Part shown: positions 1-44,407 of the stretch, piece by piece
Layout of the letters: every line of letters starts with the position of its first letter
Position numbering within the stretch: the stretch's first letter is position 1
Source: a virus
Lineage: Duplodnaviria > Heunggongvirae > Uroviricota > Caudoviricetes
DNA: 49,011 nucleotides
Virus record (IMG/VR): IMGVR_UViG_2687453442_000006
Direction: 5' to 3' (one strand)
Translations under genes and position numbers: made by a program
Notes under the pieces: model-generated
What the model was told of the DNA's origin: nothing
What the model saw: the letters and a program-made list of their open reading frames with translations, nothing else
Database searches by the model: none

Positions 1-585
1 CTATTCGATAATGGGTACTGTTGGCCATTCAATATCCTGTGAAGTTGACGTATCAACACGGTTCAGCAATACCCGATACTTTTTCCATGCTTCCAGCAAC
101 GAGATTTCTTCCTCCGTTGCAATTTCCAGATCTGCAGCATCCTGAAGCGGCGCAATATGCTCACTGGCTACCTGCATCAGGTTGTTTTTTATTTCTTCCG
201 CCTCCCGGATCCGGAACAGTTTTTCTGCTTCCGTATCCTTCACCCAGGCTGTGCCGTTCCACTTCTGAAACTCTCCTTCCGGCGATAACCAGGTAACATT
301 TTCCGGTAACGGACCGAGTTCAGAAATAAATAACGCGTCGCCGGAAGCCACGTCATAAACCGTTTTACCCCGATGATCTTCAACGAGATGCCACGATGAC
401 TCATCACTGTTGAAAACAGCCACGAAGCCTGCCGGAATATCTGGCGGTGCAATATCGGTACTGTTTGCTGGCAGACCTGTATGAGGCGGAATATATGCAT
501 CACCTTCACCAATAAATTCATTAGTTCCGGCCAGCAGATTATAAATTTTTATGGTCCGTGGTTGTTCACTCATTCTGAATGCCAT
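1..585 (-). CDS. tfa: Tail fiber assembly protein Tfa (lambda-like)
   Basis: 194-aa track ORF whose stop falls at window positions 1-3; sequence ([24 protein letters not shown]...) matches lambda Tfa as I recall it along its whole length; start overlaps stf stop. Confidence 0.9.
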
Positions 586-3500
586 TATGCAAGCCTCACA
601 ATATAGTTAAATGCGATGTTTTTGACGGTGTTTTCCGCGTTACCAGCAGCGTTAACGGTGATGGTGTGTCCATGTGAACCAATCGCAACGGAGTGCGTAT
701 GAGCACCAATACCGACAGTATGCGCGTGTGCACCTGCAGATGCTGCTGTGCCGGACAGTGAGTGGCTATGATTACCATCTGTACTGGTATTAGCTAACCA
801 CCCCGTAGACATACCTACTGAGCCTTGTACACCCCAGGTATTTTGACCTGAGCTTGTATAACCATATTGATAAGTATCTTTAAAAACACTGGGGTTAAAT
901 CGACGGCCATCTCTATGGCTGTGATTACCAGCTGCATTCGTGCTGCCACTTAAACTATGGGTATGCGCACCAGTGTTATTCGTGGATTTAGTGCCGTAAT
1001 CAAACGACGATGTGGTTTTCGTACCCAAATCCGTACTGGATGCGCTGGCGCTGTGGGTGTGCGATTTAATGCCGTCCTGTTCCTGAGACAATATGGCTCG
1101 ACCACTGGCGGGCTTGCCCTTAATCATCCAGCCACGCATATCAGGGATCACGCCTGACGGATAAGCAGCTGCAAGTTTCGGGTAAGCAGATTTGTCAAAA
1201 GTCTGCCCCTGCATCAGGGCATAACCAGACGGAACGGTATCTGATGGCCACGGGATTGGTGCGCCGACTGGGTAGCTTTCTGGTGGAAGATTTTTCGAGG
1301 TATAAACTTCTGCCCAGTCTTCCTCAAAACCATAACCGTCTCTTGAAGAACGGTAGAACAGACCACCATTTCTGTAATGCGCCTTCATCTGCAGGGTCCG
1401 GCAACTTCCGACTCCGGTATAGAAGTTAACCAGAATATAGCTGTCGCCAGAGCGGGTGACATTATAAGCGCCTGATTCGGCATTCCAGGGAACGCCACCA
1501 TCCGCATCGGCATATGTATCCGTTGCCCTTCTGGCAAAAGCAGCCACATGCGCGGCGGTTAAAGTAATATCTTTGGAACCATCAAACTCAACACCAGAAA
1601 CCCGTCTTGGCGTTTGCAGCTTTGTTGCTGTTAATGCATTACCGTTCAGACTTGCGGACAGTTTGGTTCCAATAACCAGTTCGCCGGTTGCGTTATCAAT
1701 AGCAAACGGTCTTAATGTATTCCAGCCACCATAAACATCACCTTGATTGGTAAGCAGCAGGTAAGTTTTAGCGCCATCATTACGCCATAATGCCCCATAC
1801 TCCCCACCTATCATTCGAATCTGATTACCACCACGCGCTACAATTTCGTCTGTGGCAAAAAGTTTTTTGCACGACAAGTTATCGTTAACGATTAATGAAT
1901 GAGACTCATAAAAACCACGCCCACTCTTAAAATCAAGGATAACGTCCGCCGCGATACATTCAGTCGCCGGATTTGTTGCCCCAAACTTATAGGTCGTATC
2001 ATTAACAACGAGATCAGCACCAGGTGCGGATATTGACAGGCCATCTTCGATAAACGCAAAAACAGGGAAAGCAGCGCCATCAACATAGAACACAGAGCGC
2101 AAATCATCGCCCTTATTACTCATCATTATTGAGTGGATGGCTCGTTCATTGTTTTGATATTGCCAGAACATTCCATAAGCATAACGCCCCCTGTCAGTCC
2201 AGCCACCAGGCATAACAAATCCGTTAAACTCGCAGTTATTCATCGGATCGCCTGCGGTTCGCGTTGCCGTGGTGATAATGACCCTTGATGCCAGTTCGCT
2301 TACTGAGCCAGCAGAACGCATAACAACAACAGGGTAATATTTTCCAGATGTTGCACCTGCAGGAGCGTTAACCCGCACATAACGCATACCACGCTTATCA
2401 GCAAAGTCTGTTTTACTGACCGCGTTAATGTTGTTCAGGAAGCGTCCCTTATCGGGTATATCAGCGCCGTTCTGGTCTTTCTGCAGACGTTTCTCTGCAT
2501 TGTCATAGGCTGATTTTACTGCCTTTGGCGTTGCCGCCAGCGTTTCAGACGTACTGTTGGTCGCACTGCTGAGCTGTACTATCCCCTTTTTCGTCGTACT
2601 TGCATCCTCAAGCGCCACGGCGGATGCAATATCCTCTGCCCGTTTTGCCGCTGTCTCGGCGCGCGTTGCCGCGGATTCCGCCGTACTTTTGCTCTGTGCT
2701 GCCGCCGTCGCACTGCCAGCTGCCTCTGTCGCCTTCGTGGATGCTGTCGTGGCGCTGCCCTTCGCTGCGGACGCTTGTCTGGTCGCCTCATCTTTTGAAG
2801 CAGACGCCGATGATGCCGATGACGCCGCCGAACTGGCGGACGATGCGGCAGCCGTTTTTGAGGATTCTGCGCTGGTTTCCGACGCTTTCGCGTTCGTCTC
2901 GGATGTCTTCGCTGCGGAAGCAGACCTCGCTGCTGCGCTGGCCTGTTCAGTGGCTTCGCCAGCCTTCGTTGTGGCTGTTGAAGCAGACGATGCGGCACTT
3001 TCTGCCGATTTTCCGGCGGCGGTGGCACTGGCTGAGGCCTGCCCGGCACTTGTTGACGCGGCACTGGCAGACGACGCAGCCGCTGTTTTTGAGCCTGCCG
3101 CAGCCGAGGCGCTCTGTCCCGCTGCCGTTTCAGAAGACCTGGCGTTTGTCTCAGACGTCTTTGCCGCCTTCGCGGAATTGCCTGCCGCCGTTGCCGAGGA
3201 AGCGGCACTACTGGCGCTTGATGATGCGTTCGTTTCTGATGATTTCGCTGCCTCTTTTGAGGCCGCCGCATCCCGGGCTGAGGTGGCTGCTTCTGACGCC
3301 TTCGTGGTCGCGGCGGATGCAGAAGTGGCTGCTGATTGTTGTGACGCTGCCGCATTCGTTTCTGACGTTTTCGCCGCAGCGGCACTGGTAGCTGCCGCGC
3401 TTTTTGAGGACTCTGCAGCAGCAGCACTTTTCGATGCTTCACTGGCCTTTGTTGATGCCGTTCCTGCGCTGGAAGATGCTGACTGAGCCGACGACGCGGC

Positions 3501-3983
3501 CTGTCCGGCTGACGTGCTGGCTGCGCGTGCTGAGCCTGCAGCATCAGTCGCATGGGTTGCCGCCTCACGTGCTGATGTGCCGGCATCGCTGGCTGACTTC
3601 TTCGCGGCTGCCGTGTTCTGTGCCACCGCGGACGCGTTACGCGCCACCTCTTCCACCATCAGTTCAAAACGGCGCAGTGCCTCAGGACGGGCATCATCCT
3701 CCGTCATGGCACCGAGAAAATCATTCAGCGTACCGGGTCGGGAATCTTCATACACGGTGATGGTCCCGGCATGTGACGGCGGGAATCCCTCCACCAACAG
3801 AATAACGCTGTACTGCCCGTACTCAACGTCCATGCTGTAACGCCCGGCTTCATCCGGATTTTCTGAGGCCAGCGTGTTCACCACCACCGTGGTGCTGTTA
3901 CGTTTTGCTTTCAGCTGGATTGTGCAGTTCTGTACCGGTTTTCCTGTGCCGTCTTTCAGTACACCTGAAATCTTTACTGCCAT
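585..3983 (-). CDS. stf: Side tail fiber protein Stf, lambda-like ends with expanded Ala/Ser/Thr-rich central repeat region (about 1132 aa)
   Basis: Track ORF 585..3989; N-terminus [26 protein letters not shown] and C-terminal His-box tip (GAHTHSLSG ... [27 protein letters not shown]) match lambda Stf from memory; start moved two codons in (MAVK) by homology; central KTSETNA-type repeats. Confidence 0.85.
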
Positions 3984-3992
3984 ATTCACCCC

Positions 3993-4023
3993 ACAAAAAA
4001 GCCCGCCTGAACCGGCGGGCTGT
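3993..4023 (-). terminator. Candidate rho-independent terminator downstream of lom
   Basis: GC-rich inverted repeat (gcccgcc ... ggcgggc) followed on the minus strand by a T-run; coordinates approximate. Confidence 0.5.
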
Positions 4024-4047
4024 CATAACACTGTGTTACCTGGCTAA

Positions 4048-4647
4048 TCAGAATTTATAACCGATACCCACGATGAAACCGTCAGTGCGCCAGTCACCAC
4101 TGCCGGAGCCTTCATAAGCAATATCAATGGCCACGGATTCGGTCGGGTTAAACTGCACGCCAGCCCCCCACGCCAGAGACGTGTTGCTGTGGCGACCGTC
4201 ATCACTTCCGGTCAGCACATCGTGCTTTTTCCCCTTGTTGTCAGTTACGCGAAGATAATCCCCGGAGAAAGTCGACACACGGCTGTAAGCCACACCCGCC
4301 ATCGCATACGCGCTGAACCATTCATTCACGCGCACAGACGGCCCCGCCATTACGCTGAACCAGCGGTTACGAACGGAATCTTCATGCCAGCGGGTATCGC
4401 TGTAACGGGTCAGCTGGCGATTCTTGTCTCCTGCATAGCTGAACGACGTCTCCAGCCCCAGTGTGTCCGTAAACTCATAACGGTATTTCACGTTAATCCC
4501 GTTCAGATCATCACTGCCGGGAACGTTCGTCGAGGCATGAAGATAGCCCGCGCTCAGCGTGGACTGATGTTCAGACGCCCATGCAGGCGCACCGGATACG
4601 GCCAGACAGATGGCTGCGGACAAAATGGCGGCATAAAGTTTACGCAT
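4048..4647 (-). CDS. lom: Outer membrane protein Lom (Ail/Lom family)
   Basis: 199-aa ORF MRKLYAAILSAAICLAVSGAPAWASEHQSTLSAGYLHA... matches lambda Lom from memory; signal peptide and C-terminal beta-barrel end GYKF. Confidence 0.9.
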   Translation of the reverse strand: MRKLYAAILSAAICLAVSGAPAWASEHQSTLSAGYLHASTNVPGSDDLNGINVKYRYEFTDTLGLETSFSYAGDKNRQLTRYSDTRWHEDSVRNRWFSVMAGPSVRVNEWFSAYAMAGVAYSRVSTFSGDYLRVTDNKGKKHDVLTGSDDGRHSNTSLAWGAGVQFNPTESVAIDIAYEGSGSGDWRTDGFIVGIGYKF

Positions 4648-29603: not shown

Positions 29604-29987
29604 TTAATTAGAGTTATTAACAACGATATCCATCTCTAACCGGATATCTAATGCCATTAACATCCCTTCAATTATGCCCTCAGCCTTTTGTAACCTTTTC
29701 CCGATATAACCATCAGAGCAGCAATGCTTACCTGCCAGTGACATGAATGTCATACCGACTACATAATAATCTACTAATAAATCGTGCAAATCGCTGTTGT
29801 TCTTTTTCAGACGGGCCATGCACCCGCAAATAATCATCGCGTCATCGTCACAACATTGCGGGCGAGATTTTACTTTTGAAGTAATTAATCCCTTAAAACC
29901 GGCGGCAATGGACGACCAGGTCACATCTTCATGATTATTAGCCGCCCACGCTCCCCAACGCTCAAGAACCATCTGAATATCACGCAT
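29604..29987 (-). CDS. Q: Late gene antiterminator Q (phage 21/82/DLP12 QuuD type)
   Basis: Track ORF 29604..30002; [60 protein letters not shown]... matches DLP12 QuuD as I recall it; start at MRDIQM chosen (alternative 15 nt upstream). Confidence 0.8.
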
Positions 29988-30209
29988 CAACTTACTCCAC
30001 AAAAATCAGGCCAGAACGCCAATTACAAGCAAAAATCAACAAAACAGTATTAGTTGATTGTTATCTCTGACTTCATACTCCTGCTCCTGTCAGGGTTTTG
30101 GCGTAATTCTTCAGTATTCGGTAATCGGTCAAAACAGAACCGGGGGAACGATATAAGCGCAGACGCCCCCAGCGGTGGAGAAGAAGTTCTGCCATATTAA
30201 ACTCAAACA

Positions 30210-31477: not shown

Positions 31478-32065
31478 GCTTCACCTCCGCAGAGGTCAAA
31501 CGTTAGATGCAAAGAATTGCAGGTGCATTTCTGCATCTGTGACGGGAGAAGTGAGTTTGGATTGTGTGTGCGCATAAACGTCCCCGTTTAGCGCAGAAGT
31601 CACCGGAGTTGTTCAGGCTCCGATGAGATGATTATGGCGGGTTGATTATTGAAAATCAATTTTGTGGATTTAGGCGCAATATGAAGGATCATTAGCAGCT
31701 CTAATACCGTTCTGAATCGATTGCTCGCACCCTATTGTGAGCCAGGAAATATTTTTGCTCGATGTAAGTCAAGCCACCGGCTTCACGTCGCTCAGATACT
31801 TGAGGAAGTGGAGTGACATTCTGGCAGGCGGTTAGCATCACCTGCTCGCCATAACCAAGCGAGTGTACAAAGTTCGCTGTCGGTGAATCACCTTTTTATT
31901 GGAGCGCGCTGCACTTCTCATTGAGGATAATTGGTACCCAGTAGACGTATTTTTTCGCTACTGAGTACCTGTGACGATGGCAATCAGATCGGCACTACGA
32001 CAAGTGAAAAAAATCACATTGTATTAAGCATGATTTCATTAAAAACTGGCCAATAGTTATTAAAA

Positions 32066-32086
32066 GACCCCTTGCGGGGTCTTTTA
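32066..32086. terminator. Bidirectional rho-independent terminator downstream of the SIR2-like gene
   Basis: Perfect hairpin gaccccTTGCggggtc flanked by an A-run upstream and T-run downstream (aaaagacccc...ggggtctttt); about 125 bp past the SIR2-like stop. Confidence 0.6.
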
Positions 32087-32208
32087 ATTTATTGTTTTTT
32101 AAGCATTTCCTTGATTTTTTTCTTACTTTCTTCAGAAATTCTGCTTTGGTTGTTGATATTTTTCTGCTTCATAAGCCCCTTCACTCTCAGTTAATCACTG
32201 TTCAATTA

Positions 32209-34191
32209 TTAAGCTGGTTTGCTTATACTTTCTTCGCCAGTGCGTAATCCATCAAATGCCTCATCATTGTCTGCTGATTTGTGAGTTATGGCTTTCTTTT
32301 TATCTGTAGGTATTTCTCTCACATCAGGGCTGAGACTTTGAGTCTCATCCTCAGCAGGAACAACCTCTGGTAACTCCGTTTCTTCTTCGAATGAAACGTT
32401 ATAACCACGCTCTATAGCTACTAGCTTGACCTTTTCATAAAACTCTGTAGAAATCAAGTCAAAAATCGGCATTGATTGCGTCAATATTGTAACTATCTCA
32501 GTTTCATCTAATGCTGATAGCACTTCTTCAGCAATGTCCCATTTTTCTAAAAGTATAGCAGCCCCCAGAGCAAGCCAAGCTTCGTTTTTATCTATCACTT
32601 CATTCAGCACTTCCTCAAGCTCTTGTTGCTGTTTTGCTGAAAGCGGCTGCTTTTGTAATTTGTTGCAAAGAACTCTATTTATAAGCAATAACTGCTTATG
32701 TTTAGACGGTATTGTTCGGGATTCAAGTATGTCCATAAGGCTATTCGCAATTTTGAATTTTTTAGCATCCATTAAGTCCACTAATCCATTTACAAGCTTG
32801 CCAACTTCACCATCATTCATTTTGTTATAACTTGTTATTCTTTCTATTGACTTTTGTATTTCAGAATCATTATCCAAATGAATATAGGAACGAAGTATTA
32901 ATACTTCTGTTTCGAGAGATTTCCCATTAGCCAGATGTTTAGTAGCATATTCTACACATTCATTATACTCTCCAGCACGAAATGCAGAGTTTGCAATCAA
33001 ATAATTGGGGGTATTATAAAAATGAATCCCCTCAGGAGAACCAGCAAATTTAGTTTCCTTTAACATTATTTCTAAAGATTTAGTGATCGAATTATCATCT
33101 AACGATGAGTCTTTCTCTGAAAGAAGTACTTTTATTTTTTTTACAAACTGGCTTACTGTATTCACTCTCCTGACATGATCAGCAAGATTATTCATATCTC
33201 TTTTAATAATCTCATGCTGGACATCTGCGTCATCTTCTTCAGCTATAGAGAAATATCTATCTAGTTTATTAGATAATGCAGAGTATGGCTCTACTACCTC
33301 TTGCTGCAAATTACAGCCTAATGCGTAATGTAATTCAGCCATGAACTCATCAAATCCATTAATTTTAATAAGATGAAAATGAGGAAAGCGGGCCAGATTT
33401 TTAAGTTGCTCAGAAAGTTTTTCAGTGTCTGAGTCACGGATACACCAATAAATCCCATGAGGAAAACAACTACCGGAATGCAATAACGTATTGAGAGTAT
33501 CCATAATTGAACGGTCGTGTCCCGAGTACCCAATAACGATCATGCCAAATTCAGTTGCAAACTGTCTAAATTTGGCCCTCATGTTATCTTCAAGTGACTC
33601 AAGCTCCCTTATAGTATTCTTGATATTGTCAAATAAAAAATCACCATGTAATTTTATTATTTTTGGCCGAGCTGTGGTTAAACGTATGCTGTTGATACTT
33701 GAATCGTGGGCACACACTATTGGTCTCAGATTATTAGAAAAGGTAAAGCAAGCTTCATTGACTAAATCATCGAAGTTAGTCGTAAAAATTGTATTAAAAT
33801 GGCCTTTATCCAATAGATTTGTGAGATAAACGTATCCCCAAGATGGTTTAGCTGCGGTAATACAACTTTCAATAAATTCTCTTCTTTGAGTTGGTTGATC
33901 ATATAATGCTTCAAAAAGCTCTGAATACTCATTATCTTTATCGTACCAAACTTGTTTTTTGAGAGCATCTTCTCCATACATTAGAGTGTAAGCATCTCTC
34001 CAGCGCCTTATCATCCCACCAGCACTATCAACACCACTTGAGATACTAGCACCTGCACCAAGAAAAAGAGTAAAATTTGGATGATGTTGTTTGGTTGAAG
34101 TCAGGATGTTAATTAGGTGCTGCTGTGGTCTAATTTTCATATATATACCGAGACATTCCATGAAAGTTATCATCGGTTCCATATGATACAC
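32209..34191 (-). CDS. SIR2-like (SIR2_2 family) NAD-binding protein with C-terminal helical domain; candidate anti-phage defence NADase
   Basis: 660-aa ORF; N-terminal half has sirtuin-like motifs in order: FTLFLGAGASISSGV, TTNFDDLVNEA, KIIKLHGDF, IVIGYSGHD; C-terminal about 350 aa Leu/Glu/Lys-rich helical with acidic tail; strongly AT-rich; true start uncertain (several in-frame GTG/ATG). Confidence 0.7.
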   Translation of the reverse strand: MYHMEPMITFMECLGIYMKIRPQQHLINILTSTKQHHPNFTLFLGAGASISSGVDSAGGMIRRWRDAYTLMYGEDALKKQVWYDKDNEYSELFEALYDQPTQRREFIESCITAAKPSWGYVYLTNLLDKGHFNTIFTTNFDDLVNEACFTFSNNLRPIVCAHDSSINSIRLTTARPKIIKLHGDFLFDNIKNTIRELESLEDNMRAKFRQFATEFGMIVIGYSGHDRSIMDTLNTLLHSGSCFPHGIYWCIRDSDTEKLSEQLKNLARFPHFHLIKINGFDEFMAELHYALGCNLQQEVVEPYSALSNKLDRYFSIAEEDDADVQHEIIKRDMNNLADHVRRVNTVSQFVKKIKVLLSEKDSSLDDNSITKSLEIMLKETKFAGSPEGIHFYNTPNYLIANSAFRAGEYNECVEYATKHLANGKSLETEVLILRSYIHLDNDSEIQKSIERITSYNKMNDGEVGKLVNGLVDLMDAKKFKIANSLMDILESRTIPSKHKQLLLINRVLCNKLQKQPLSAKQQQELEEVLNEVIDKNEAWLALGAAILLEKWDIAEEVLSALDETEIVTILTQSMPIFDLISTEFYEKVKLVAIERGYNVSFEEETELPEVVPAEDETQSLSPDVREIPTDKKKAITHKSADNDEAFDGLRTGEESISKPA

Positions 34192-34299: not shown

Positions 34300-35001
34300 T
34301 CATGCTCTTGCTCCTTTCAGTCCGAACTTAGCTTTGATTTCTGCGATCTTCGCCAGAGCCTGTGCACGATTTAGAGGTCTACCGCCCATGACAGGAAGTT
34401 GTTTTACTGGTTCAGGTATAGCCTCACCACGGTTAATTCGTGCGGACATACAGGACAGTTCATCGGCAGCCTTGCGCCGTAATTCCGCGTCAGTCAACGC
34501 ATTGGCCCGCATGTTCTGATACAGGTTGGTAACCAGCCAGTAGTGCGCGTTTGATTTCCACGGATAAGACTCTGCATCAGGATACAGCCCGCGCTTCCGG
34601 CAATACTCGTAAACCATATCAACCAGCTCGCTGGCGTTTGGCAGCCCGGCGGTAACGGATGCTTCTTCCCGGCACCAGGCGACAAACTGCCCGGGTGATG
34701 GCAGGAATGGTCGATTCTGCCGACGGGCTACGCGCATTCCAGCGTTAACCTGTTCCATTGTGGTGATCCCGTTTTCCCGAAAAGCCAGCACCCACTGGCG
34801 GCGGATTTCGTTCAGTTCATTCTGGTCACGGTTAGCCAGGCTCGCCGGGAAAGTTGCCAGTAACTGGCTGAACACACCGTTGATGATCTGCGCTACCTGC
34901 TGTACCTGCGGCTTTTCGTCGTACTGTTCCGGCATGTTGTTGGCGATCCGGCGCATCTGCTCACAGTCAAAGTTAACCATCTGTGCGGCGATGTTTTTCA
35001 T
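34300..35001 (-). CDS. P: Replication protein P (DnaB helicase loader)
   Basis: 233-aa ORF MKNIAAQMVNFDCEQMRRIANNMPEQYDEKPQVQQVAQIINGVFSQLLATFPASLANRDQNE... near-identical to lambda P. Confidence 0.95.
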   Translation of the reverse strand: MKNIAAQMVNFDCEQMRRIANNMPEQYDEKPQVQQVAQIINGVFSQLLATFPASLANRDQNELNEIRRQWVLAFRENGITTMEQVNAGMRVARRQNRPFLPSPGQFVAWCREEASVTAGLPNASELVDMVYEYCRKRGLYPDAESYPWKSNAHYWLVTNLYQNMRANALTDAELRRKAADELSCMSARINRGEAIPEPVKQLPVMGGRPLNRAQALAKIAEIKAKFGLKGARA

Positions 35002-35927
35002 AGCTCCACCCCGTAAATCCAGTCAGTGTTCGTCAGGTCGAGTTTTGGTTTGCCGGCTGTCACGCCAGCCTGTTGCTTGTTTCGGTTGATTTCGAGCTGG
35101 GTCCACTTGTCGCGGAGTTTGGCCGGACTCAGCACGTTACCGGACCAGAAGTTGTCCTGGCATGCCCAGCGGAACAGTACACACATATCGCGGTGGTTAC
35201 GTCCGTCACGTTCACGCATCAGGCGGATATCGTTAGCCCACCCTGCAAAATTCGGTTTTCTGGCTGATGGCGCGATGGTCTTCACCATGTCAAACATCCA
35301 CTCTGCGGCGGTCAGGTCTTCTGCTGTCCCCCACTTGCTGCCGCTCTGAATTGCAGCATCCGGTTTCACCACAGGAAGATCGTTTTCTGGCTGGTCAGAG
35401 GATTCGCCAGAATTCTCGGACGAAAAAGGTTTTATATTGTCTTTTGTTAGTTTGTCTTTTGTGTTTACCTGATTCGGGTAAACGTCTTTACCTGATTTGG
35501 GTAAACTTTTCTTACCTGATTCAGGTAAATTTACCTCTTTCAGGTAAACTTTATTTTTCTTACCTGATTCGGGTAATGTTGACCATTCACTGACCACATT
35601 ATTAATGCCGATATTCCGCCCGCTCTGAATAAGAATCCCACGCTTTACCAGAACGCTTTTTGCAGCAGAACACTTGTGCGGCAATATCCCGGTCAATTCG
35701 GAAAGTTGCTCGTTGCTCACCCAATCCAGTTTTTTATTAAAGCCATATGTTTTGCGCATGACAGCCAGGAAGACCAGAAGCTGGTGCTGTGTTAATCCGG
35801 CCAGCATCACAGCTTCCAGCAACTCATTTGCAATGCGCGTATAACCATCATCGAGATCTGCCACGCGCGGCTCCTTTTGTGCCACATCCGGCACTGGAAA
35901 ATTGAATATCTCAGCAGTGTTTGCCAT
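34998..35927 (-). CDS. O: Replication initiator O (lambda-type C-terminal domain, divergent N-terminal iteron-binding domain)
   Basis: Track ORF 34998..36017; start chosen at MANTAEIFNF preceded by GGGAGG; C-terminus ...WANDIRLMRERDGRNHRDMCVLFRWACQDNFWSGNVLSPAKLRDKWTQLEINRNKQQAGV...DWIYGVEL matches lambda O; N-terminal domain differs; iterons lie inside the gene. Confidence 0.85.
   Translation of the reverse strand: MANTAEIFNFPVPDVAQKEPRVADLDDGYTRIANELLEAVMLAGLTQHQLLVFLAVMRKTYGFNKKLDWVSNEQLSELTGILPHKCSAAKSVLVKRGILIQSGRNIGINNVVSEWSTLPESGKKNKVYLKEVNLPESGKKSLPKSGKDVYPNQVNTKDKLTKDNIKPFSSENSGESSDQPENDLPVVKPDAAIQSGSKWGTAEDLTAAEWMFDMVKTIAPSARKPNFAGWANDIRLMRERDGRNHRDMCVLFRWACQDNFWSGNVLSPAKLRDKWTQLEINRNKQQAGVTAGKPKLDLTNTDWIYGVEL
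35455..35590. repeat. Origin of replication iterons (ori) inside O
   Basis: At least four direct repeats of a TTACCTGATTCGGGTAA-like unit spaced about 20-30 bp apart, followed by an AT-rich stretch; the lambdoid ori sits in the middle of O; boundaries approximate. Confidence 0.65.
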
Positions 35928-36013
35928 AATTCCTCCCGCAATGAGTGTGTTACGATTTGCACCTGAAAGTCGGTTCTGTTCGCGCAGACCGGCTTTCGCC
36001 ATTTCTGAACCTG

Positions 36014-36559
36014 TCATATTGCCCCCAGCATGGTGGTGACCATCGCCATCAGTGGACCAGCCAGATCCGGGTCCACACGAAACATCGACACAATGCCTTC
36101 ACTCATCTCCTTCAGTTTCTGGTGGCGTGGTGCGTTGAGAATGACAGCCTGTTTTGCCTCACTGAGTTCCTTTTCCATTTCAGCCAGCCGAGCCATGAAG
36201 CTATCCTGCTCAACCAGGTGGCCGCGATATTCCAGCGGTAGTACCGCCAGAATTGCCGGGGTCAGTTCACGCACGTTATTTCGGTATTTTTCAGAATCGA
36301 ATTTGTTATCGAGGAAGCGGAACAGCTTCTGGCGTGCACGGCTGACATCATCAGGGAAATCGATGGTGCCGCCGCCCTGCTCCCGATACTCATTCACAAT
36401 GAGTGCGGCAACAACATCCTGATTATCTGCAGCCGACCAGGCGCGGACGGCATCACGGATTTTTTCGTGGCCTGGAGCTTGTTTTGTTTGAGAACGATTT
36501 ATCACCGCAGTCGGGCTAAATCCGCTAGTCTGTTGGTATGTAAGTGGTTGCATAGTCAT
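36014..36559 (-). CDS. CII-position regulatory protein (YdaT-like, tentative)
   Basis: 181-aa ORF between cro and O, overlapping O by 4 nt; no similarity to lambda CII (97 aa) that I can recognise; YdaT-like call is from memory of YdaS/YdaT pairs and is tentative. Confidence 0.45.
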   Translation of the reverse strand: MTMQPLTYQQTSGFSPTAVINRSQTKQAPGHEKIRDAVRAWSAADNQDVVAALIVNEYREQGGGTIDFPDDVSRARQKLFRFLDNKFDSEKYRNNVRELTPAILAVLPLEYRGHLVEQDSFMARLAEMEKELSEAKQAVILNAPRHQKLKEMSEGIVSMFRVDPDLAGPLMAMVTTMLGAI

Positions 36560-36583: not shown

Positions 36584-36811
36584 TTAGGCGGCAGAATTAC
36601 TCGCGTTAAACAATGGTGCGAGGTCGGGACGAATATCTGCTGGTTTAATCTTTCCACCAGTGGCTGAGACAATTTTCATTACATAGCGGGCATCAATTCC
36701 GCCACCGTGTAGCCAACGCCAAACAGTGGGCTGGGCTACACCGCATAGATCTGCCAGTCGTTTTTGACTACCTGTAATACTGATTGCGAGTTGAATGGTT
36801 TGATTTGTCAT
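36584..36811 (-). CDS. cro: Cro-like HTH regulator (YdaS/Cro family)
   Basis: 75-aa ORF MTNQTIQLAISITGSQKRLADLCGVAQPTVWRWLHGGGIDARYVMKIVSATGGKIKPADIRPDL...; helix-turn-helix signature; divergent from cI across an operator region. Confidence 0.7.
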   Translation of the reverse strand: MTNQTIQLAISITGSQKRLADLCGVAQPTVWRWLHGGGIDARYVMKIVSATGGKIKPADIRPDLAPLFNASNSAA

Positions 36812-36921
36812 TATTAATTCCTATTGGTATTACAATAAATAAATAATAGCAATACGTATTAATCATAACAATAGCAAAACGTGTTTTGACCATCAATACG
36901 CAAGCGTATAAATTAAAACTT
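36812..36921. promoter_or_regulatory. Immunity control region (oR/pR/pRM analogue) with repeated AATAGCAA(T/A) operator-like motifs
   Basis: Divergent cI/cro intergenic region; motif AATAGCAATACG / ACAATAGCAAAAC repeated; TTGACC ... TATAAA elements placed so that the cI ATG lies just downstream of the predicted start (near-leaderless, as at lambda pRM). Confidence 0.5.
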
Positions 36922-37614
36922 ATGAAAAAAGAAACTCTTGCTGATCGCTTAAACCTAGCGATGGAACAATCTGGAATGTCTCAAGGCGCTCTTGCAAAGG
37001 CGTCTGGCGTAGCTCAACCCACAATCTGGAGACTGACAAGCGGCAACGCGCGCGGCTCAACAAAAATTGTTGAAATAGCTAATGCATTGGGTGTTCGAAC
37101 AGAGTGGCTCTCATCAGGCATAGGCCCGATGAGAAATGACGGTCAACAATTAGGGAAGCCTACTGCCAACCATCCCAAATACTTCAAGATTGACGTTCTT
37201 GATATAGAAGTGAGTGCCGGGCCGGGAGTCATCAACCGTGAGTTTGTAGAAGTTCTACGCTCGGTTGAGTACTCGTTTGACGATGCTCGTCACATGTTCG
37301 ATGGTAGGAAGGCAGAAAATATCCGCATCATTAACGTACGCGGTGACAGCATGTCAGGAACGATTGAACCTGGTGATCTTCTATTCGTTGATATCACGGT
37401 TAAATCTTTCGACGGTGATGGTATCTATGCGTTTCTGTACGACGACACAGCCCATGTAAAGCGCTTGCAAATGATGAAGGATAAGCTGCTGGTTATCTCT
37501 GATAACAAAAGCTACTCACCGTGGGACCCGATCGAGAAAGATGAGATGAACCGGGTATTTATCTTCGGGAAAGTTATTGGGAGCATGCCGCAGACGTATA
37601 GGAAGCATGGATAG
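36922..37614 (+). CDS. cI: CI-type prophage repressor (HTH plus LexA-like S24 peptidase domain)
   Basis: Track ORF 36886..37614 (TTG); ATG at 36922 (MKKETLADRLNLAMEQSGMSQGALAKASGVAQPTIWRL) preferred; N-terminal HTH; C-terminal S24 motifs (RGDSMSGT..., KRL); divergent from cro. Confidence 0.85.
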   Translation: MKKETLADRLNLAMEQSGMSQGALAKASGVAQPTIWRLTSGNARGSTKIVEIANALGVRTEWLSSGIGPMRNDGQQLGKPTANHPKYFKIDVLDIEVSAGPGVINREFVEVLRSVEYSFDDARHMFDGRKAENIRIINVRGDSMSGTIEPGDLLFVDITVKSFDGDGIYAFLYDDTAHVKRLQMMKDKLLVISDNKSYSPWDPIEKDEMNRVFIFGKVIGSMPQTYRKHG

Positions 37615-37682: not shown

Positions 37683-38756
37683 ATGGAGAACTTAATGGAT
37701 ACTTTAAAATATGAGAAATTCTCTGATTTTGATCACAATGACCCATTTTTTGACTCTTTAAAAAAAGATTATAAAGAGTTTCCTCTTTGGTTAGAAAAAA
37801 AAGCCAGAGAAGGAGAATCAGCTTATGTGCTCTATGATGACAAGCATAAAATCGAAGGTTTTATGTATCTAAAAGAAAATGATGATGCAAATGACATTAA
37901 TCCAGCGCTCCCACCAGGACGTCATCTAAAGATAGGAACATTCAAATTTGAATCTAAAGGCACCCTTCGCGGACAACGATTTCTAAAAAAAGCGTTTGAC
38001 CATGCATTTTCATCAAAATCTGATGATATTTATGTTACTGTTTTCGACAAACACGTCCATCTAATAAAACTTTTCCAAACGTACGGATTTTACATTCATG
38101 GTGAAAAAGAAACACATAACGGGAAAGAGTTTGTATATGCGAGGTCTTTGCATGAGCCTTATGGTGATATTTTATTAGATTACCCTCGAATAATGACATC
38201 AAGGGCCAACAAATATTTACTGGCGATTTATCCCGAATATCACACTAGACTATTCCCTGATTCAAAACTTGTAAATGAATCACCAGATATTGTCAAAGAT
38301 ATATCCCATGCTAACAGCATTCATAAAATTTACATATGTGGAATGCGTTCTGTGATGGGAATGAAAAGAGGAGATATCATTGTCATCTATAGAACCGGAG
38401 ACAAAAAAGGGCCAGCTCGCTATCGTTCTGTAGCCAGTACATTATGTGTAGTTGAGAGCGTAAAAAATATTTCTGAATTTTTAAGCGAAGATAGTTTTGT
38501 AGACTATTGTATTCGTTTTAGCGTATTTTCTGAAGATGAACTCAGAAAAATCTATAAAGAACGTCGATACCCTTTCATTATAAGATTCACATACAATCTG
38601 TCTTTGCCAAAGAGACCCAATCGTGCTATTTTAATAGATCATGTGGGGCTAAATGGTTCGCGTGCATTCCGATGGAGTCACTTTAAACTCACAAATGAGC
38701 AGTTCTTAAAGATCATCGAGTTAGGCAAGATAAATGAAAGTTTTATTATCCATTAA
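37683..38756 (+). CDS. Two-domain protein: N-terminal acetyltransferase-like (GNAT-like, tentative) plus C-terminal PUA-like (ASCH/EVE-like) domain; first gene of rex-locus cassette
   Basis: 357-aa AT-rich ORF; N-terminal 160 aa has a GNAT-like beta-alpha pattern (HLKIGTFKFESKGTLRGQRFLKKAFDHAF ... DIYVTVFDKHVHLIKLFQTYGFYIHGE); C-terminal half resembles PUA-like beta-barrels (KYLLAIYPEY ... GDIIVIYRTG ... VASTLCVVESV); domain calls are pattern recognition only. Confidence 0.55.
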   Translation: MENLMDTLKYEKFSDFDHNDPFFDSLKKDYKEFPLWLEKKAREGESAYVLYDDKHKIEGFMYLKENDDANDINPALPPGRHLKIGTFKFESKGTLRGQRFLKKAFDHAFSSKSDDIYVTVFDKHVHLIKLFQTYGFYIHGEKETHNGKEFVYARSLHEPYGDILLDYPRIMTSRANKYLLAIYPEYHTRLFPDSKLVNESPDIVKDISHANSIHKIYICGMRSVMGMKRGDIIVIYRTGDKKGPARYRSVASTLCVVESVKNISEFLSEDSFVDYCIRFSVFSEDELRKIYKERRYPFIIRFTYNLSLPKRPNRAILIDHVGLNGSRAFRWSHFKLTNEQFLKIIELGKINESFIIH

Positions 38757-39111
38757 GCCTGAGTTTGCAGAAAAAATATTGAACGGAACAAAGCGGTTCG
38801 AGTTTCGTAAAGGTATATTCAAAAATCCGCAAATTAGCACCGTTGTTATTTATGCCACGATGCCATTAGGTAAAGTTGTTGGCCAATTCCGTATTGAATC
38901 AATACTAAGTGACGAACCGGAATCTCTTTGGAAAAAGACGGAAAAACACGCAGGTATTTCTAAGCAATTTTATGACTCATATTATTCAGGTAGAGAAAAG
39001 GCCTACGCAATAAAAATTGGTGAAGTGGAAAGATATAAAGAACCAATTCCTATCTCTGCTCTAGGTAGTAATATTAAGCCACCACAATCATATCTTTACC
39101 TACCTGCGTAA
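38734..39111 (+). CDS. ASCH-domain protein (PUA-like superfamily); second gene of rex-locus cassette
   Basis: 125-aa ORF MKVLLSIKPEFAEKILNGTKRFEFRKGIFKNPQISTVVIYATMPLGKVVGQFRIESILSDEPESLWKKT... follows the ASCH domain pattern; overlaps the upstream gene by 23 nt. Confidence 0.65.
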   Translation: MKVLLSIKPEFAEKILNGTKRFEFRKGIFKNPQISTVVIYATMPLGKVVGQFRIESILSDEPESLWKKTEKHAGISKQFYDSYYSGREKAYAIKIGEVERYKEPIPISALGSNIKPPQSYLYLPA

Positions 39112-39113
39112 GA

Positions 39114-39142
39114 ATCCCGGCCACCGTGCCGGGTTTTCTTTT
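39114..39142 (+). terminator. Rho-independent terminator after the ASCH gene
   Basis: Hairpin cccggccACCGtgccggg followed by TTTTCTTTT immediately after the ASCH stop; coordinates approximate. Confidence 0.55.
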
Positions 39143-39239
39143 GTCCCCTCATCACACAAACCGTTCGAAAAACCACCACATCCTCCCTTCAGTTATCGCT
39201 ATGCGATGCAAGTCACAAAATTAATTCTTTTTGCTATCA

Positions 39240-39320
39240 AACAGTTAATATCAAAACACATCAATCAATAGCAATAAGTATTGATACAGCCAATAGCAAT
39301 AGCTATTATTACCATGTCGC
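39240..39320 (+). promoter_or_regulatory. Candidate oL/pL region (operator-like AATAGCAAT repeats)
   Basis: Same AATAGCAA(T/A) motif as in the cI/cro intergenic region (CAATAGCAATAAGTATTG, CCAATAGCAATAGCTATT), with dyad symmetry, upstream of the early-left genes. Confidence 0.45.
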
Positions 39321-39382
39321 AACAACACAACGATACGGCAATCACCTGATTCACCGTTGCGATTACCGCTTAGATCCGCAGC

Positions 39383-39793
39383 TTGAATTTCAGCAGGCTC
39401 CGGGGAGTGCGAGGGGTGAAGCGGACGCGTGAACGTCGGTGTGACCAGCTGAAATCAACTCAACACCTCATACCTCAGTCGCTTCAACGAGGCGGCTTAG
39501 TTATGACAACCGGCGGCCATCCACCGCCTGAATACGCGCAGAAGTCTTTATATGTTCAGCAGCCCAGCTTACGGGCAGGAGTTTTTATGGTTCATCAACA
39601 TTACGGAACGCAGACCGTTAATCGCGGTGCGGTCATGCCAGGAATGCTGGTCAAACACAAAGATGGTACCTGGACTGCATCAGCTAATTTACGCGGACGG
39701 CTATATCTGCATCGCGGCATCGAGCGCACTTATACCCGTGATTTGCTCGTGGAAGTTTTTCTCGACGGACGCGGTAACGGCCTGAATCGCTAA
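39383..39793 (+). CDS. Hypothetical protein in the N position (possible N-like antiterminator, unverified)
   Basis: 136-aa track ORF from a TTG; Arg-rich N-terminal segment ([17 protein letters not shown]); alternative ATG start at about 39503 ([11 protein letters not shown]..., 97 aa); no recognisable similarity to lambda N. Confidence 0.3.
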
Positions 39794-39868
39794 TCCCCTT
39801 TCCTGTTTTCCTAATCAGCCTGGCATTTCGCGGGCGATATTTTCACAGCCATTTTCAGGAGTTCAGCC

Positions 39869-40165
39869 ATGAACGCTTATTACATTCAGGATCGTCTTGA
39901 GGCTCAGAGCTGGGCGCGTCACTACCAGCAGATCGCCCGTGAAGAGAAAGAGGCAGAACTGGCAGACGACATGGAAAAAGGTCTGCCCCAGCACCTGTTT
40001 GAATCGCTATGCATCGATCATTTGCAACGCCACGGGGCCAGCAAAAAAGCCATTACCCGTGCGTTTGATGACGATGTTGAGTTTCAGGAGCGCATGGCAG
40101 AACACATCCAGTACATGGTTGAAACCATTGCTCACCACCAGGTTGATATTGATTCAGAGGTATAA
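39869..40165 (+). CDS. gam: Gam (RecBCD inhibitor), short GamS-sized form
   Basis: 98-aa [101 protein letters not shown], near-identical to lambda Gam C-terminal 98 aa; upstream in-frame codons (..FRSSA) are cut by a stop, so no long form. Confidence 0.9.
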
Positions 40166-40170
40166 AACGG

Positions 40171-40956
40171 ATGAGTACAGCACTCGCAACGCTGGCAGGG
40201 AAACTGGCTGAACGTGTCGGCATGGATTCTGTCGACCCACAGGAACTGATCACCACTCTTCGCCAGACGGCATTTAAAGGTGATGCCAGCGATGCGCAGT
40301 TCATCGCATTGCTGATCGTCGCCAACCAGTACGGCCTTAATCCGTGGACGAAAGAAATTTACGCCTTCCCTGATAAGCAGAACGGCATTGTTCCGGTGGT
40401 GGGCGTTGATGGCTGGTCCCGCATCATCAATGAAAACCAGCAGTTTGATGGCATGGACTTTGAGCAGGACAATGAATCCTGTACATGCCGGATTTACCGC
40501 AAGGACCGTAATCATCCGATCTGCGTTACCGAATGGATGGATGAATGCCGCCGCGAACCATTCAAAACCCGCGAAGGCAGAGAAATCACGGGGCCGTGGC
40601 AGTCGCATCCCAAACGGATGTTACGGCATAAAGCCATGATTCAGTGTGCCCGTCTGGCCTTCGGATTTGCTGGTATCTATGACAAGGATGAAGCCGAGCG
40701 CATTGTCGAAAATACTGCATACACTGCAGAACGTCAGCCAGAACGCGACATCACCCCGGTTAACGATGAAACCATGCAGGAGATTAACACTCTGCTGATC
40801 GCCCTGGATAAAACATGGGATGACGACTTATTGCCGCTCTGTTCCCAGATATTTCGCCGCGACATTCGCGCATCGTCAGAACTGACACAGGCCGAAGCAG
40901 TGAAAGCTCTTGGATTCCTGAAACAGAAAGCCACTGAGCAGAAGGTGGCAGCATGA
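40171..40956 (+). CDS. bet: Bet (Red-beta single-strand annealing recombinase)
   Basis: 261-aa [69 protein letters not shown]... essentially identical to lambda Bet from memory. Confidence 0.95.
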
Positions 40957-41633
40957 TACCGGACATTATCCTGCAGCGTACCGGGATCGACGTGAGAGCT
41001 GTCGAACAGGGGGATGATGCATGGCACAAATTACGGCTCGGCGTCATCACCGCTTCAGAAGTTCACAACGTGATAGCAAAACCCCGCTCCGGAAAGAAAT
41101 GGCCTGACATGAAAATGTCCTACTTCCACACCCTGCTTGCCGAGGTTTGCACCGGTGTGGCTCCGGAAGTTAACGCTAAAGCACTGGCCTGGGGAAAACA
41201 GTACGAGAACGACGCCAGAGCCCTGTTTGAGTTTACTTCCGGCGTGAATGTTACTGAATCCCCGATCATCTATCGCGACGAAAGTATGCGTACCGCCTGC
41301 TCTCCGGATGGTTTATGCAGTGACGGCAACGGCCTTGAACTGAAATGCCCGTTTACCTCCCGGGATTTCATGAAATTCCGGCTCGGTGGTTTCGAGGCCA
41401 TAAAGTCGGCTTACATGGCCCAGGTGCAGTACAGCATGTGGGTGACGCGAAAAGATGCCTGGTACTTTGCCAACTATGACCCGCGTATGAAGCGTGAAGG
41501 CCTGCATTATGTCGTGGTTGAGCGGGATGAAAAGTACATGGCGAGTTTTGACGAGATGGTGCCGGAGTTCATCGAAAAAATGGACGAGGCACTGGCTGAA
41601 ATTGGTTTTGTATTTGGGGAGCAATGGCGATGA
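40953..41633 (+). CDS. exo: Exo (lambda exonuclease, Red-alpha)
   Basis: 226-aa [71 protein letters not shown]... matches lambda Exo. Confidence 0.95.
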
Positions 41634-41788
41634 AGCATCCTCACGATAATATCCGGGTAGGTGCGATCACTTTCGTCTACTCCGTTACAAAGCGAGGCTG
41701 GGTATTTCCCGGCCTTTCTGTTATCAGAAATCCCCTGAAAGCACAGCGGCTGGCTGAGGAGATAAATAATAAACGGGAGAGTGTATGA
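41630..41788 (+). CDS. Small protein, lambda orf60a-like
   Basis: 52-aa ORF not in the track, read by eye: [52 protein letters not shown]; ATG overlaps exo stop (ATGA) and its stop overlaps the next ATG. Confidence 0.55.
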
Positions 41789-42537
41789 TTCATTTTCACG
41801 GTGGTCCAATAACTCCCGATACCTGTGCGTTGAAAGCCTGGAAAGGCAGACACGCATTCATCAGTTTTGCTAATCCAGCTCAGATTGATCTGGCTTCCGA
41901 AGTCACCCAATCATTTGCTCTTGATAATGGTGCATTCACATTCTGGACAAAAAACAAGGCCGTAGACTGGAATGAATATTACAGATTTGTTGAACGCTGG
42001 GGCAATCACCCTCGTTTCTCATTCGCGGTTATCCCGGATGTTATCGGCGGAACCAGTGAAGAGAATGACGCCCTGATTGCGGCATGGCCTCACGGTAAAT
42101 TTATTGGTGCTCCGGTGTGGCACATGAACGAACCAGATGAGCGATTTATTCGTCTGTGCCATGAGTTTCCCCGCGTCTGCATCGGCTCGATGGGGGAATA
42201 CGATGCAAAACGACCGAGAGCGTGTCGGGCTAAACTACGCGATCTTATACGTCATGTTGTAGATCAGTACGGCTACCCAATCACCAAGATTCATGGGTTA
42301 CGGATGTTAAATAAAGACATTTTTACTCATGTACCGCTTTCGTCTGCAGACAGCACGAACGTCGCAAGAAATATAGGCATCGACAAATCCTGGGTAGGTT
42401 CGCCATATGCTCCCGCAAGTAAAGAAACCCGTACGCAAGTTCTTGTGGAACGCATTGAATCATTCAACAGTGCCAGTTCACTTAATTACAACGCTGAACG
42501 GGACGTCTTTACCCCTCAACTGGCATTCGAAGTGTGA
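41785..42537 (+). CDS. Hypothetical protein (250 aa), accessory gene of the early-left b2-type region
   Basis: Track [92 protein letters not shown]...; translationally coupled to the upstream small ORF; I cannot assign a family with confidence. Confidence 0.6.
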   Translation: MIHFHGGPITPDTCALKAWKGRHAFISFANPAQIDLASEVTQSFALDNGAFTFWTKNKAVDWNEYYRFVERWGNHPRFSFAVIPDVIGGTSEENDALIAAWPHGKFIGAPVWHMNEPDERFIRLCHEFPRVCIGSMGEYDAKRPRACRAKLRDLIRHVVDQYGYPITKIHGLRMLNKDIFTHVPLSSADSTNVARNIGIDKSWVGSPYAPASKETRTQVLVERIESFNSASSLNYNAERDVFTPQLAFEV

Positions 42538-42760: not shown

Positions 42761-42858
42761 ACATGAAAAGCAAAATCATCAGGGAGCTACAGGCTCCTTT
42801 TTTATTATTCGCATTCACCCTCAAGCGTATTAACCAACAATTCAGGGATTAATGAAAG

Positions 42859-44112: not shown

Positions 44113-44200
44113 ACCCAATATTACATAACAATCCTCGCACTCGCGGGGATTTATTTTATCTGAACTCGCTACGGCGGGTTTTGTTTTATGGAGATGATAA

Positions 44201-44368
44201 ATGCACTTCCGAGTCACAGGAGAATGGAATGGAGAGCCATTCAACAGAGTTATCGAAGCGGAGAACATCAACGACTGCTACGACCACTGGATGATATGGG
44301 CGCAGATAGCACATGCAGACATAACCAATATTCGAATTGAAGAACTGAAAGAACACCAAGCCGCCTGA
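44201..44368 (+). CDS. Small protein, lambda orf55-like
   Basis: 55-aa ORF not in the track, read by eye (MHFRVTGEWNGEPFNRVIEAENINDCYDHWMIWAQIAHADITNIRIEELKEHQAA), followed by a hairpin plus T-run; coordinates approximate to about 2 bp. Confidence 0.5.
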   Translation: MHFRVTGEWNGEPFNRVIEAENINDCYDHWMIWAQIAHADITNIRIEELKEHQAA

Positions 44369-44407
44369 TGGCGGTTTTTTCTTGCGTGTAATTGCGGAGA
44401 CTTTGCG

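Follow-up and report, generated by a model that had tools for sequence, protein, structure and literature searches.

Between the leftward early promoter pL and the gene gam, the 49,011-nt phage genome IMGVR_UViG_2687453442_000006 (analysed over its whole length and called the window below) carries a single long open reading frame (ORF) of 136 codons in the position of lambda N. Our analysis indicates that this interval consists of pL, an untranslated leader of ~270 nt made of two conserved RNA modules, and kil, the gene of a predicted cell-division inhibitor, and that the 136-codon ORF is kil joined to an accidental frame; we put the probability of this reading at about 0.8. Confidence is high for the anatomy and low for any specific function of the two modules, called module 1 (39365-39457) and module 2 (39468-39586). 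What is new here is a non-coding leader variant of the lambdoid early-left architecture, with two conserved structured modules that are not in Rfam. The window is a complete lambdoid phage with its leftward operon on the plus strand, on which all features given below lie unless stated otherwise.

kil and the open frame in front of it

A promoter scan placed pL at 39281-39309 (10 of 12 matches), with TTGATA at 39281-39286 as the -35 element, TATTAT at 39304-39309 as the -10 element and 17 nt between them; it is overlapped by the oL operators, which carry CAATAGCAA motifs over 39266-39315. A first-pass annotation, made from the letters of the sequence, had proposed operator repeats at this place, and they are real: a 49-nt repeat is common to oR (36845-36893) and oL (39267-39315), with 73% identity. 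Transcription from pL is predicted to start at ~39316, and homology to phages with another immunity type sets in at 39317, i.e. at the predicted transcription start. Most of what the same annotation had described downstream also holds. About 550 bp separate pL from gam; the one long ORF inside (39383-39793) has 136 aa when read from its TTG and shares the frame of gam, with two stop codons between them (TAA at 39791-39793 and at 39812-39814, the gam ATG being at 39869); and gam (39869-40165; Pfam Gam, E = 2e-64) lacks the long-form N-terminus, its 98 aa being the short-form size and the Pfam match covering positions 1-98 of 98. The internal ATG exists as well, at 39503, and leaves 96 aa, not the 97 given. 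The second in-frame stop lies in the kil-gam spacer (39794-39868), which is ~99% identical in many lambdoid and Stx phages.

Homology indicates that the real gene in this ORF is confined to its last 68 codons, kil (39587-39793, a coding sequence of 207 nt), the product of which is a predicted 68-aa inhibitor of the cell-division protein FtsZ, of the KilR/phi80-Kil family. It matches phrog_294, "Kil protein for bacterial septation inhibition", with E = 1.7e-37 (profile positions 13-79 of 83) and the NCBIfam KilR model NF008465 with E = 3.6e-17 (positions 1-67 of 73), and it is 40% identical to phi80 Kil. Homologues occur in 146 phage records, and all matches begin at residue 1-5 of the 68. PGAP calls the identical coding sequence ("phage encoded cell division inhibitor protein", WP_000233577.1), and a Shine-Dalgarno sequence, AGGAG at 39577-39581, lies 5 nt 5' of the kil ATG at 39587. 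A block of the FtsZ ring, with filamentation, is the predicted function of this protein. Like Rac KilR and phi80 Kil (68-73 aa), to which it is similar over its full length, it is encoded in the early-left operon just 5' of anti-RecBCD and recombination genes, but it is the first gene after pL whereas theirs are distal. It is unrelated to the lambda Kil Pfam family, which it did not match. The same arrangement, a small Kil-type gene next to gam or recombination genes, is found in HK225, KO-TP1, HK639 and phi80.

The 68 codons in front of kil (39383-39586), which include an Arg-rich stretch, appear to be an accidental open frame over the leader and to be non-coding. Comparing 19 distinct close relatives with the window, we counted 11 synonymous and 7 non-synonymous changes in kil, whereas 39383-39586 has 5 synonymous and 9 non-synonymous changes, two of the latter being nonsense; these counts point to purifying selection on kil and to none on the upstream stretch. 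The change C39476T (CAG to TAG) is present in 11 of 18 distinct relatives, T39549A creates a second stop in the upstream frame, and in-frame stops across 39383-39586 are found in 12 of the 18. In two relatives, 1-nt indels at ~39577 and ~39581 (between 39503 and 39587) shift the frame. The TTG at 39383 has no Shine-Dalgarno sequence, and translations of the leader have no protein-level homologues beyond their own phage group. Note that 9.1% of dinucleotide shuffles of the stretch leave the 68-codon extension free of stops by chance, so that the long ORF alone is weak evidence for a gene. A leader peptide or upstream ORF starting at ATG 39503 (MTTGGHPP...) was also considered, and was rejected as a conserved peptide: indels of 1-2 nt between this ATG and hairpin 2 of module 2 shift the frame in other copies, and the ATG sits in the closing helix of a hairpin described below.

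The ORF thus resolves to something ordinary, a kil gene, with a start that is often mis-called, in a known N-less lambdoid group, and with the start assigned here several GenBank entries for "Kil", either 139 aa long or out of frame, can be put right. Public phage records give Kil a spurious 5' extension or a wrong frame, and in some the true 68-aa coding sequence is unannotated. The mis-called loci are 3749-4168 in Perceval (L002; 139 aa), 3801-4007 in PhiR30_1 (L003), 1606-1887 in Turner (L012) and 3091-3477 in PhiR47_2 (L013); the frame is wrong in PhiR30_1 and Turner because of 1-nt indels 5' of the true start.

Two structured modules in the leader

Module 2 is a copy of a conserved cassette of the tL1 region, minus the tL1A hairpin. 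Copies were collected by an exact 26-mer search and then by a pattern without the 26-mer requirement, and the cassette is present in more than 90 copies in enterobacterial phages and prophages (16 species representatives and at least 77 IMG/VR contigs); its 60-nt core also matches HK225, phi80 and Enterobacter and Klebsiella phages. The canonical order is a variable gene, a rho-independent hairpin (AGCCGCCTAACCAGCGGCTTTTTT), CATACC, hairpin 1, TTAGTTATGACAACC, hairpin 2 (GGCGG-CCATCCA-CCGCC), a hypervariable spacer, GCGCAGAAGTCTTGTATTAAC, hairpin 3, and finally a Shine-Dalgarno sequence with the ATG of a variable downstream gene. The cassette starts inside the final codons of one gene and ends at the start codon of the next, with at least 25 unrelated gene families upstream and at least 16 downstream. 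In phi80, HK225, HK639 and many prophages its place is right behind the rho-independent terminator tL1A and right in front of the first delayed-early gene. In the window, the long hairpin 1, drawn from covariation and RNAalifold, pairs 39468-39472 with 39502-39506, C39474 with G39500, and 39477-39485 with 39489-39497; hairpin 2 pairs 39512-39516 with 39524-39528 around the loop CCAUCCA, and hairpin 3 pairs 39562-39565 with 39573-39576. It is RNAalifold that lengthens hairpin 1 by UCAUA/UAUGA, which makes ATG 39503 helical. At the place of tL1A, AACTCAACACC stands directly before TCATACC in the window, with neither hairpin nor T-run.

Hairpin 1 is 98.6% paired over the copies and shows compensatory changes in 6 of its 9 pairs, with a covariation of 0.496 compared with 0.178 ± 0.015 in shuffles and at most 0.09 when the partners are slid; the rho-independent hairpin of the cassette itself covaries. 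A covariance model of the cassette (R1) scores 88.5 bits at 39469-39531, the single copy in the window, and 69 bits on the phi80 copy, and each phage region holds just one copy. Over 162 nt, phi80 and the cassette consensus share 92% identity. In HK022 (L005, 4442-4488, minus strand) a reduced long hairpin, GCATAAC...AACGCTTCACTCGAGGCGTT...GTTATGC, follows right after a terminator; its closing pairs are changed compensatorily and it scores 20 bits with the same model.

The closest described layout is that of phi80 (GenBank M11919, X13065, NC_021190), where the early-left region reads pL, nutL, N, tL1A/tL1B and then kil. Module 2 is homologous to the stretch directly after phi80 N, a Kil homologue lies downstream in both, and the first ~25 nt of the window transcript resemble the phi80-type start. 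Unlike phi80, the window has no N gene, no boxA (CTGCTTTTTAA in phi80) and no tL1A hairpin, and module 1 takes the place of nutL. The cassette is found whatever the antitermination type, after N in phi80 and 3' of putL in put phages (HK639, CobraSix, S9-5 and at least 12 IMG/VR contigs). Conserved intergenic cassettes flanking variable genes are familiar from the T4 PeSL cassettes and the intergenic RNase III sites of T7, and in 2001 Clark et al. reportedly described "boundary sequences" of lambdoid phages in connection with HK620. Module 2 shares with boundary-type cassettes its place between unrelated genes and the reassortment of its sub-blocks among copies, but differs in that its compensatory changes argue for selection on RNA structure and not solely on DNA homology for recombination. 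A literature search by leader sequence strings or phi80 tL1 found no description of it.

Module 2 may be a Rho-loading or attenuator region, an RNase III-type processing or stability site, or a translation-initiation cassette presenting the kil ribosome-binding site. Lambda pL RNA is processed near tL1, in an RNase III-type manner. We regard as possible, though not as what we expect, that the module is a transcription attenuator, i.e. a Rho-dependent terminator of the tL1 type or rut site that would limit kil and red expression unless the RNA is translated or antiterminated. The phi80 records annotate the homologous stretch as tL1A and "t-L1 regulatory signal" (M11919, NC_021190), with the rho-dependent tL1B just 3' of it, the unpaired segments are rich in C and poor in G (GC skew of -0.17 to -0.27 over 39440-39537), and some copies have a T-run after hairpin 2, which in the HK639 record is annotated, together with the hairpin, as a terminator. 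However, hairpin 2 has no T-run in the window, phi80 tL1B lies outside the conserved cassette, within a variable gene, and a rut site does not need the long hairpin to covary.

Module 1 is a conserved 93-nt block with two hairpins in the position of nutL or putL. Hairpin A pairs 39375-39378 with 39401-39404 and 39380-39385 with 39394-39399 around the loop AAUUUCAG (39386-39393), hairpin B pairs 39421-39427 with 39434-39440, and the loop at 39387-39393 could form a pseudoknot with 39449-39455. With nhmmer, one distant homologue was found (E = 7e-15), in an Enterobacter prophage (L029), where the block lies ~60 nt past a phi80-like transcript start; behind it come a 63-aa ORF, an antisense ORF, tL1A and then the cassette. 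A targeted scan added 18 more loci, in which at least 8 unrelated first ORFs stand after the block, with the cassette 0.6-1.2 kb further on. Relative to L029-type prophages, the window lineage appears to have lost the gene or genes in the N position together with tL1A, the 0.6-1.2 kb between modules 1 and 2. In L162, an Enterobacter-type prophage contig and sister of L029 with the same operators and flanks, a boxA-type nutL cassette (CGCCTGCTCATTAAGAA) replaces the block. The swap is clean, a ~200-nt nutL leader in L162 standing against a 115-nt segment that holds module 1 (~5300-5500 in L029). In a MAFFT alignment, the start of the block falls over the boxA of phi80 nutL.

Over three sequence lineages, both hairpins of module 1 are kept, with 91.4% of cells paired and compensatory changes in 4 pairs, e.g. 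A-U/G-C to C-G/A-U in hairpin A and A-U to G-C in hairpin B. The covariation of 0.206 compares with 0.121 ± 0.012 in shuffles (reached by 0 of 500) and with at most 0.064 when the pairs are slid, and every frequent single change in the E. coli copies is wobble-compatible, those in the possible pseudoknot included. We consider the covariation as moderate support for the structure. A covariance model of the block (R3) scores 117 bits on module 1, the single copy in the window, the next best match having 12.5 bits. The stem of the minimum-free-energy fold, 39366-39371 with 39419-39424, was rejected: it is broken by G39421A, which is present in most relatives and suits hairpin B.

Module 1 resembles the put sites of HK022 and HK639 in that an N-less lambdoid phage carries an RNA block of ~70-90 nt with two hairpins right after pL, and put phages also have tL1A and the cassette further along the operon; it differs by the lack of a put match in sequence or structure (9 bits compared with 56-99 bits) and of a putR-like copy. 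Put RNAs of the HK022 family, which lie just 3' of pL and of pR, work through the zinc-binding domain of the beta' subunit of RNA polymerase. It seems to us rather unlikely, but worth weighing, that module 1 is an undescribed cis-acting antiterminator RNA, analogous to put or nut-like with host factors only, which would explain the independence from N. The place immediately 3' of pL, like that of putL, its occurrence before variable genes and the tL1A terminator in L029-type prophages, the exchange with a boxA-type nutL cassette between identical flanks, and the compensatory changes in both hairpins are in favor of this possibility, as is the fact that the phage has neither N nor put despite terminator-like sites downstream in the pL operon. 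On the other side, no second copy serves the pR operon, though a strong terminator precedes Q, and this absence calls for caution on an antiterminator role; there is no similarity to put, and the covariation comes from three lineages only. Moreover, the nearest terminator (tL1A) is gone in the window, so that module 1 could be a relic, and among 85 loci bearing the cassette only L029 has module 1 within the fetched range.

A lineage without N, nut or put

Of 5426 complete E. coli genomes, 2231 (41%) carry the leader and the kil start, and 2206 of these copies are full-length, with 95-100% identity. Over 39120-39900, the identity is 98.6% in phages 4A7, 4C10, 1W and 3W, 97.9% in Perceval (genus Bievrevirus) and 91-97% in the PhiR series, Turner and IdasGreatGrand, and leader and kil are combined with at least three different immunity regions. 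The leader-kil module is a lineage-wide, successful architecture of viable phages and no private scar. That the region is a fresh deletion peculiar to one defective prophage, made non-inducible by loss of N, is very improbable: N, cIII, ral and ea10 are indeed absent and the leader does resemble a junction of two modules, but a scar of this kind is at odds with the number of genomes holding the full-length leader and kil, with their presence in phages that were isolated and form plaques or were induced (4A7, 4C10, 1W, 3W, Perceval, the PhiR series, Turner) and with the variety of immunity regions. The first-pass annotation had considered a deletion or recombination scar that removed N and its neighbours, which stands as evolutionary history only and not as damage to this prophage. 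It had also been right that cIII is missing, as are ral, ea10 and sieB, and mistaken in counting kil among the missing genes, since the ORF itself is kil.

N was searched for in several ways. With a lambda N sequence entered by hand and with Nun of HK022 and N of phi80 as queries, tblastn against the window returned nothing better than E = 0.9, consistent with the earlier observation that the ORF does not resemble lambda N. Pfam, PHROG and NCBIfam searches with the ORF gave Kil only and no antiterminator family, and apart from Xis no small Arg-rich ORF was found in the two early operons. The boxA motif (GCTCTTTA, with up to 1 mismatch) is absent from the leader and from the vicinity of cro, where the gap between cro and ydaT is only 25 nt and therefore leaves no room for nutR; neither leader module was found a second time, as a nutR- or putR-like site, in the pR operon. 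A put covariance model (R2) was built from 7 sequences (HK022 putL and putR, HK639, phiEt88, CobraSix, S9-5 and PdC23). Run with filters off, it reached at most 9.0 bits anywhere in the window, compared with 56-99 bits for true puts, and had no match in close relatives; as a positive control, the untrained phiEt88 putR was found with 56 bits. The similarity to HK022 put seen by blastn was noise only, and Rfam gave no match in the region, the leader yielding weak chance matches on the wrong strand. The nutL and nutR sites that had been suggested as a check and a put-like RNA system of the HK022 family are thus both unsupported.

The proposal that the ORF, or its Arg-rich N-terminal part, encodes an N-like antiterminator that has diverged and binds RNA through an arginine-rich motif is hardly credible, even though it occupies the N position and its frame from 39383 contains KRTRERR, which is superficially like the arginine-rich motif of lambda N: the part of the ORF that is real is kil, a conserved and known gene of a protein other than an antiterminator, which the first-pass annotation had itself named as grounds for refutation, the rest carries the stops, the two frameshifts and the substitution pattern given above (including an R to W change within the motif), its TTG lacks a Shine-Dalgarno sequence, its homologues are confined to their own phage group, nothing similar to N, to Nun or to the N of phi80 and no boxA was found, and the 3' half of the supposed N-terminal region is a non-coding cassette that occurs in many different reading-frame contexts.

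N, a nut boxA and put-family RNA are therefore all absent from the phage, which keeps a Q-type late antiterminator (29604-30002, minus strand). There is no intrinsic terminator before kil in the window, and as none lies between pL and kil-gam-bet-exo, these genes are predicted to need no N. Upon cleavage of cI, polymerase starting at pL would run uninterrupted by intrinsic terminators into kil-gam-bet-exo, which would be immediate-early and N-independent; on the way, module 1 would act in cis as an RNA on transcription elongation or on the mRNA, and module 2 as a structured 5' untranslated region in one of the candidate roles named above. Further along the pL operon, from exo to xis/int, 17 terminator-like sites were found compared with 6.8 ± 3.0 expected, with good hairpins at 42781-42799, 44130-44151, 44162-44181 and 44358-44377. 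The last of these, AAGCCGCCTGATGGCGGTTTTTT, resembles tL1A. In the pR operon, a strong bidirectional terminator at 32059-32088 (GACCCCTTGCGGGGTC flanked by T-runs) stands before ninB and Q, after a SIR2-like moron; in the direction of the operon (32088-32059) it reads GACCCCGCAAGGGGTC followed by TTTTAAT. These downstream sites must presumably be dealt with by read-through, internal promoters or a further antitermination mechanism, and module 1, with its nutL/putL position and its exchangeability with nutL, is the obvious candidate for their passage.

Several points speak against the reading of the interval as pL, a non-coding leader of two RNA modules, and kil. An N-less phage has to pass the hairpins of the pL operon and the terminator at 32059-32088, and this passage is unaccounted for; the roles of both modules are putative. 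The kil product scores 62 bits on NF008465, under the curated cutoff of 92 bits. Module 1 covaries over three lineages, and its structure was derived from the same sequences; folding of the leader as a single sequence is not significant (z = -1.6; whole-leader values of -1.0, -1.6 and -1.2), and hairpins 2 and 3 of module 2 show little or no scorable covariation. Finally, both the transcription start and the untranslated status of the leader are inferred.

The leader thus belongs to a very common E. coli prophage lineage that has neither N nor put, yet carries terminator-like hairpins in both early operons. If module 1 is an antiterminator, processive antitermination would gain a mechanism of a new kind; otherwise, these phages illustrate a simplified lambdoid early regulation by removal of tL1. 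In a broader and speculative form, which we judge improbable, module 1 would be a third class of pL-proximal RNA conferring terminator resistance alone or with host factors, which would account for the ability of a lambdoid lineage found in ~40% of E. coli genomes to dispense with both N and put; module 2 would then be a second new family of structured RNA, set where the immediate-early genes end and the delayed-early ones begin.

The immunity region and neighbouring genes

The immunity region is Rac-like and not lambda-like, with a YdaS-type cro (36584-36811, minus strand; Pfam YdaS, E = 1e-14) and a YdaT-domain protein in the "cII" position (36014-36559, minus strand; E = 8e-30), followed by O (34998-36017, minus strand). 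On the other side of oR lies cI, an S24 peptidase (36886-37614). The rexAB position, between cI and the terminator next to oL, is occupied by two genes matching the PADLOC candidate defence system PDC-M11: PDC-M11A (37683-38756, E = 2e-133) and PDC-M11B (38734-39111, E = 7e-52), the latter with an ASCH domain. Their homologues are labelled GevT toxin and GevA antitoxin in phage PhiR47_2. The immunity operon (cI, PDC-M11A, PDC-M11B) is closed by a rho-independent terminator at 39116-39133, CCCGGCCACCGTGCCGGG followed by TTTTCTTTTG, with 6 G-C pairs. Downstream of gam, bet (40171-40956) and exo (40953-41633) agree with the annotations of relatives.

The moron of the pR operon (32209-34191, minus strand) encodes 660 aa with a SIR2-like N-terminal domain (PADLOC Aga_SIR2, E = 5e-63; PDC-S65). 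Between the terminator at 32059-32088 and ninB, ~580 bp are free of ORFs and contain a promoter-like site at 31659-31631. The sole Rfam match of the window above the gathering score, IS009 (44-242, minus strand, 219 bits), lies at its far end. In the pL operon, 41785-42537 encodes a 250-aa protein similar to phrog_887, "queuine tRNA-ribosyltransferase" (E = 4e-99), and may be a DpdA-like DNA-modification gene.

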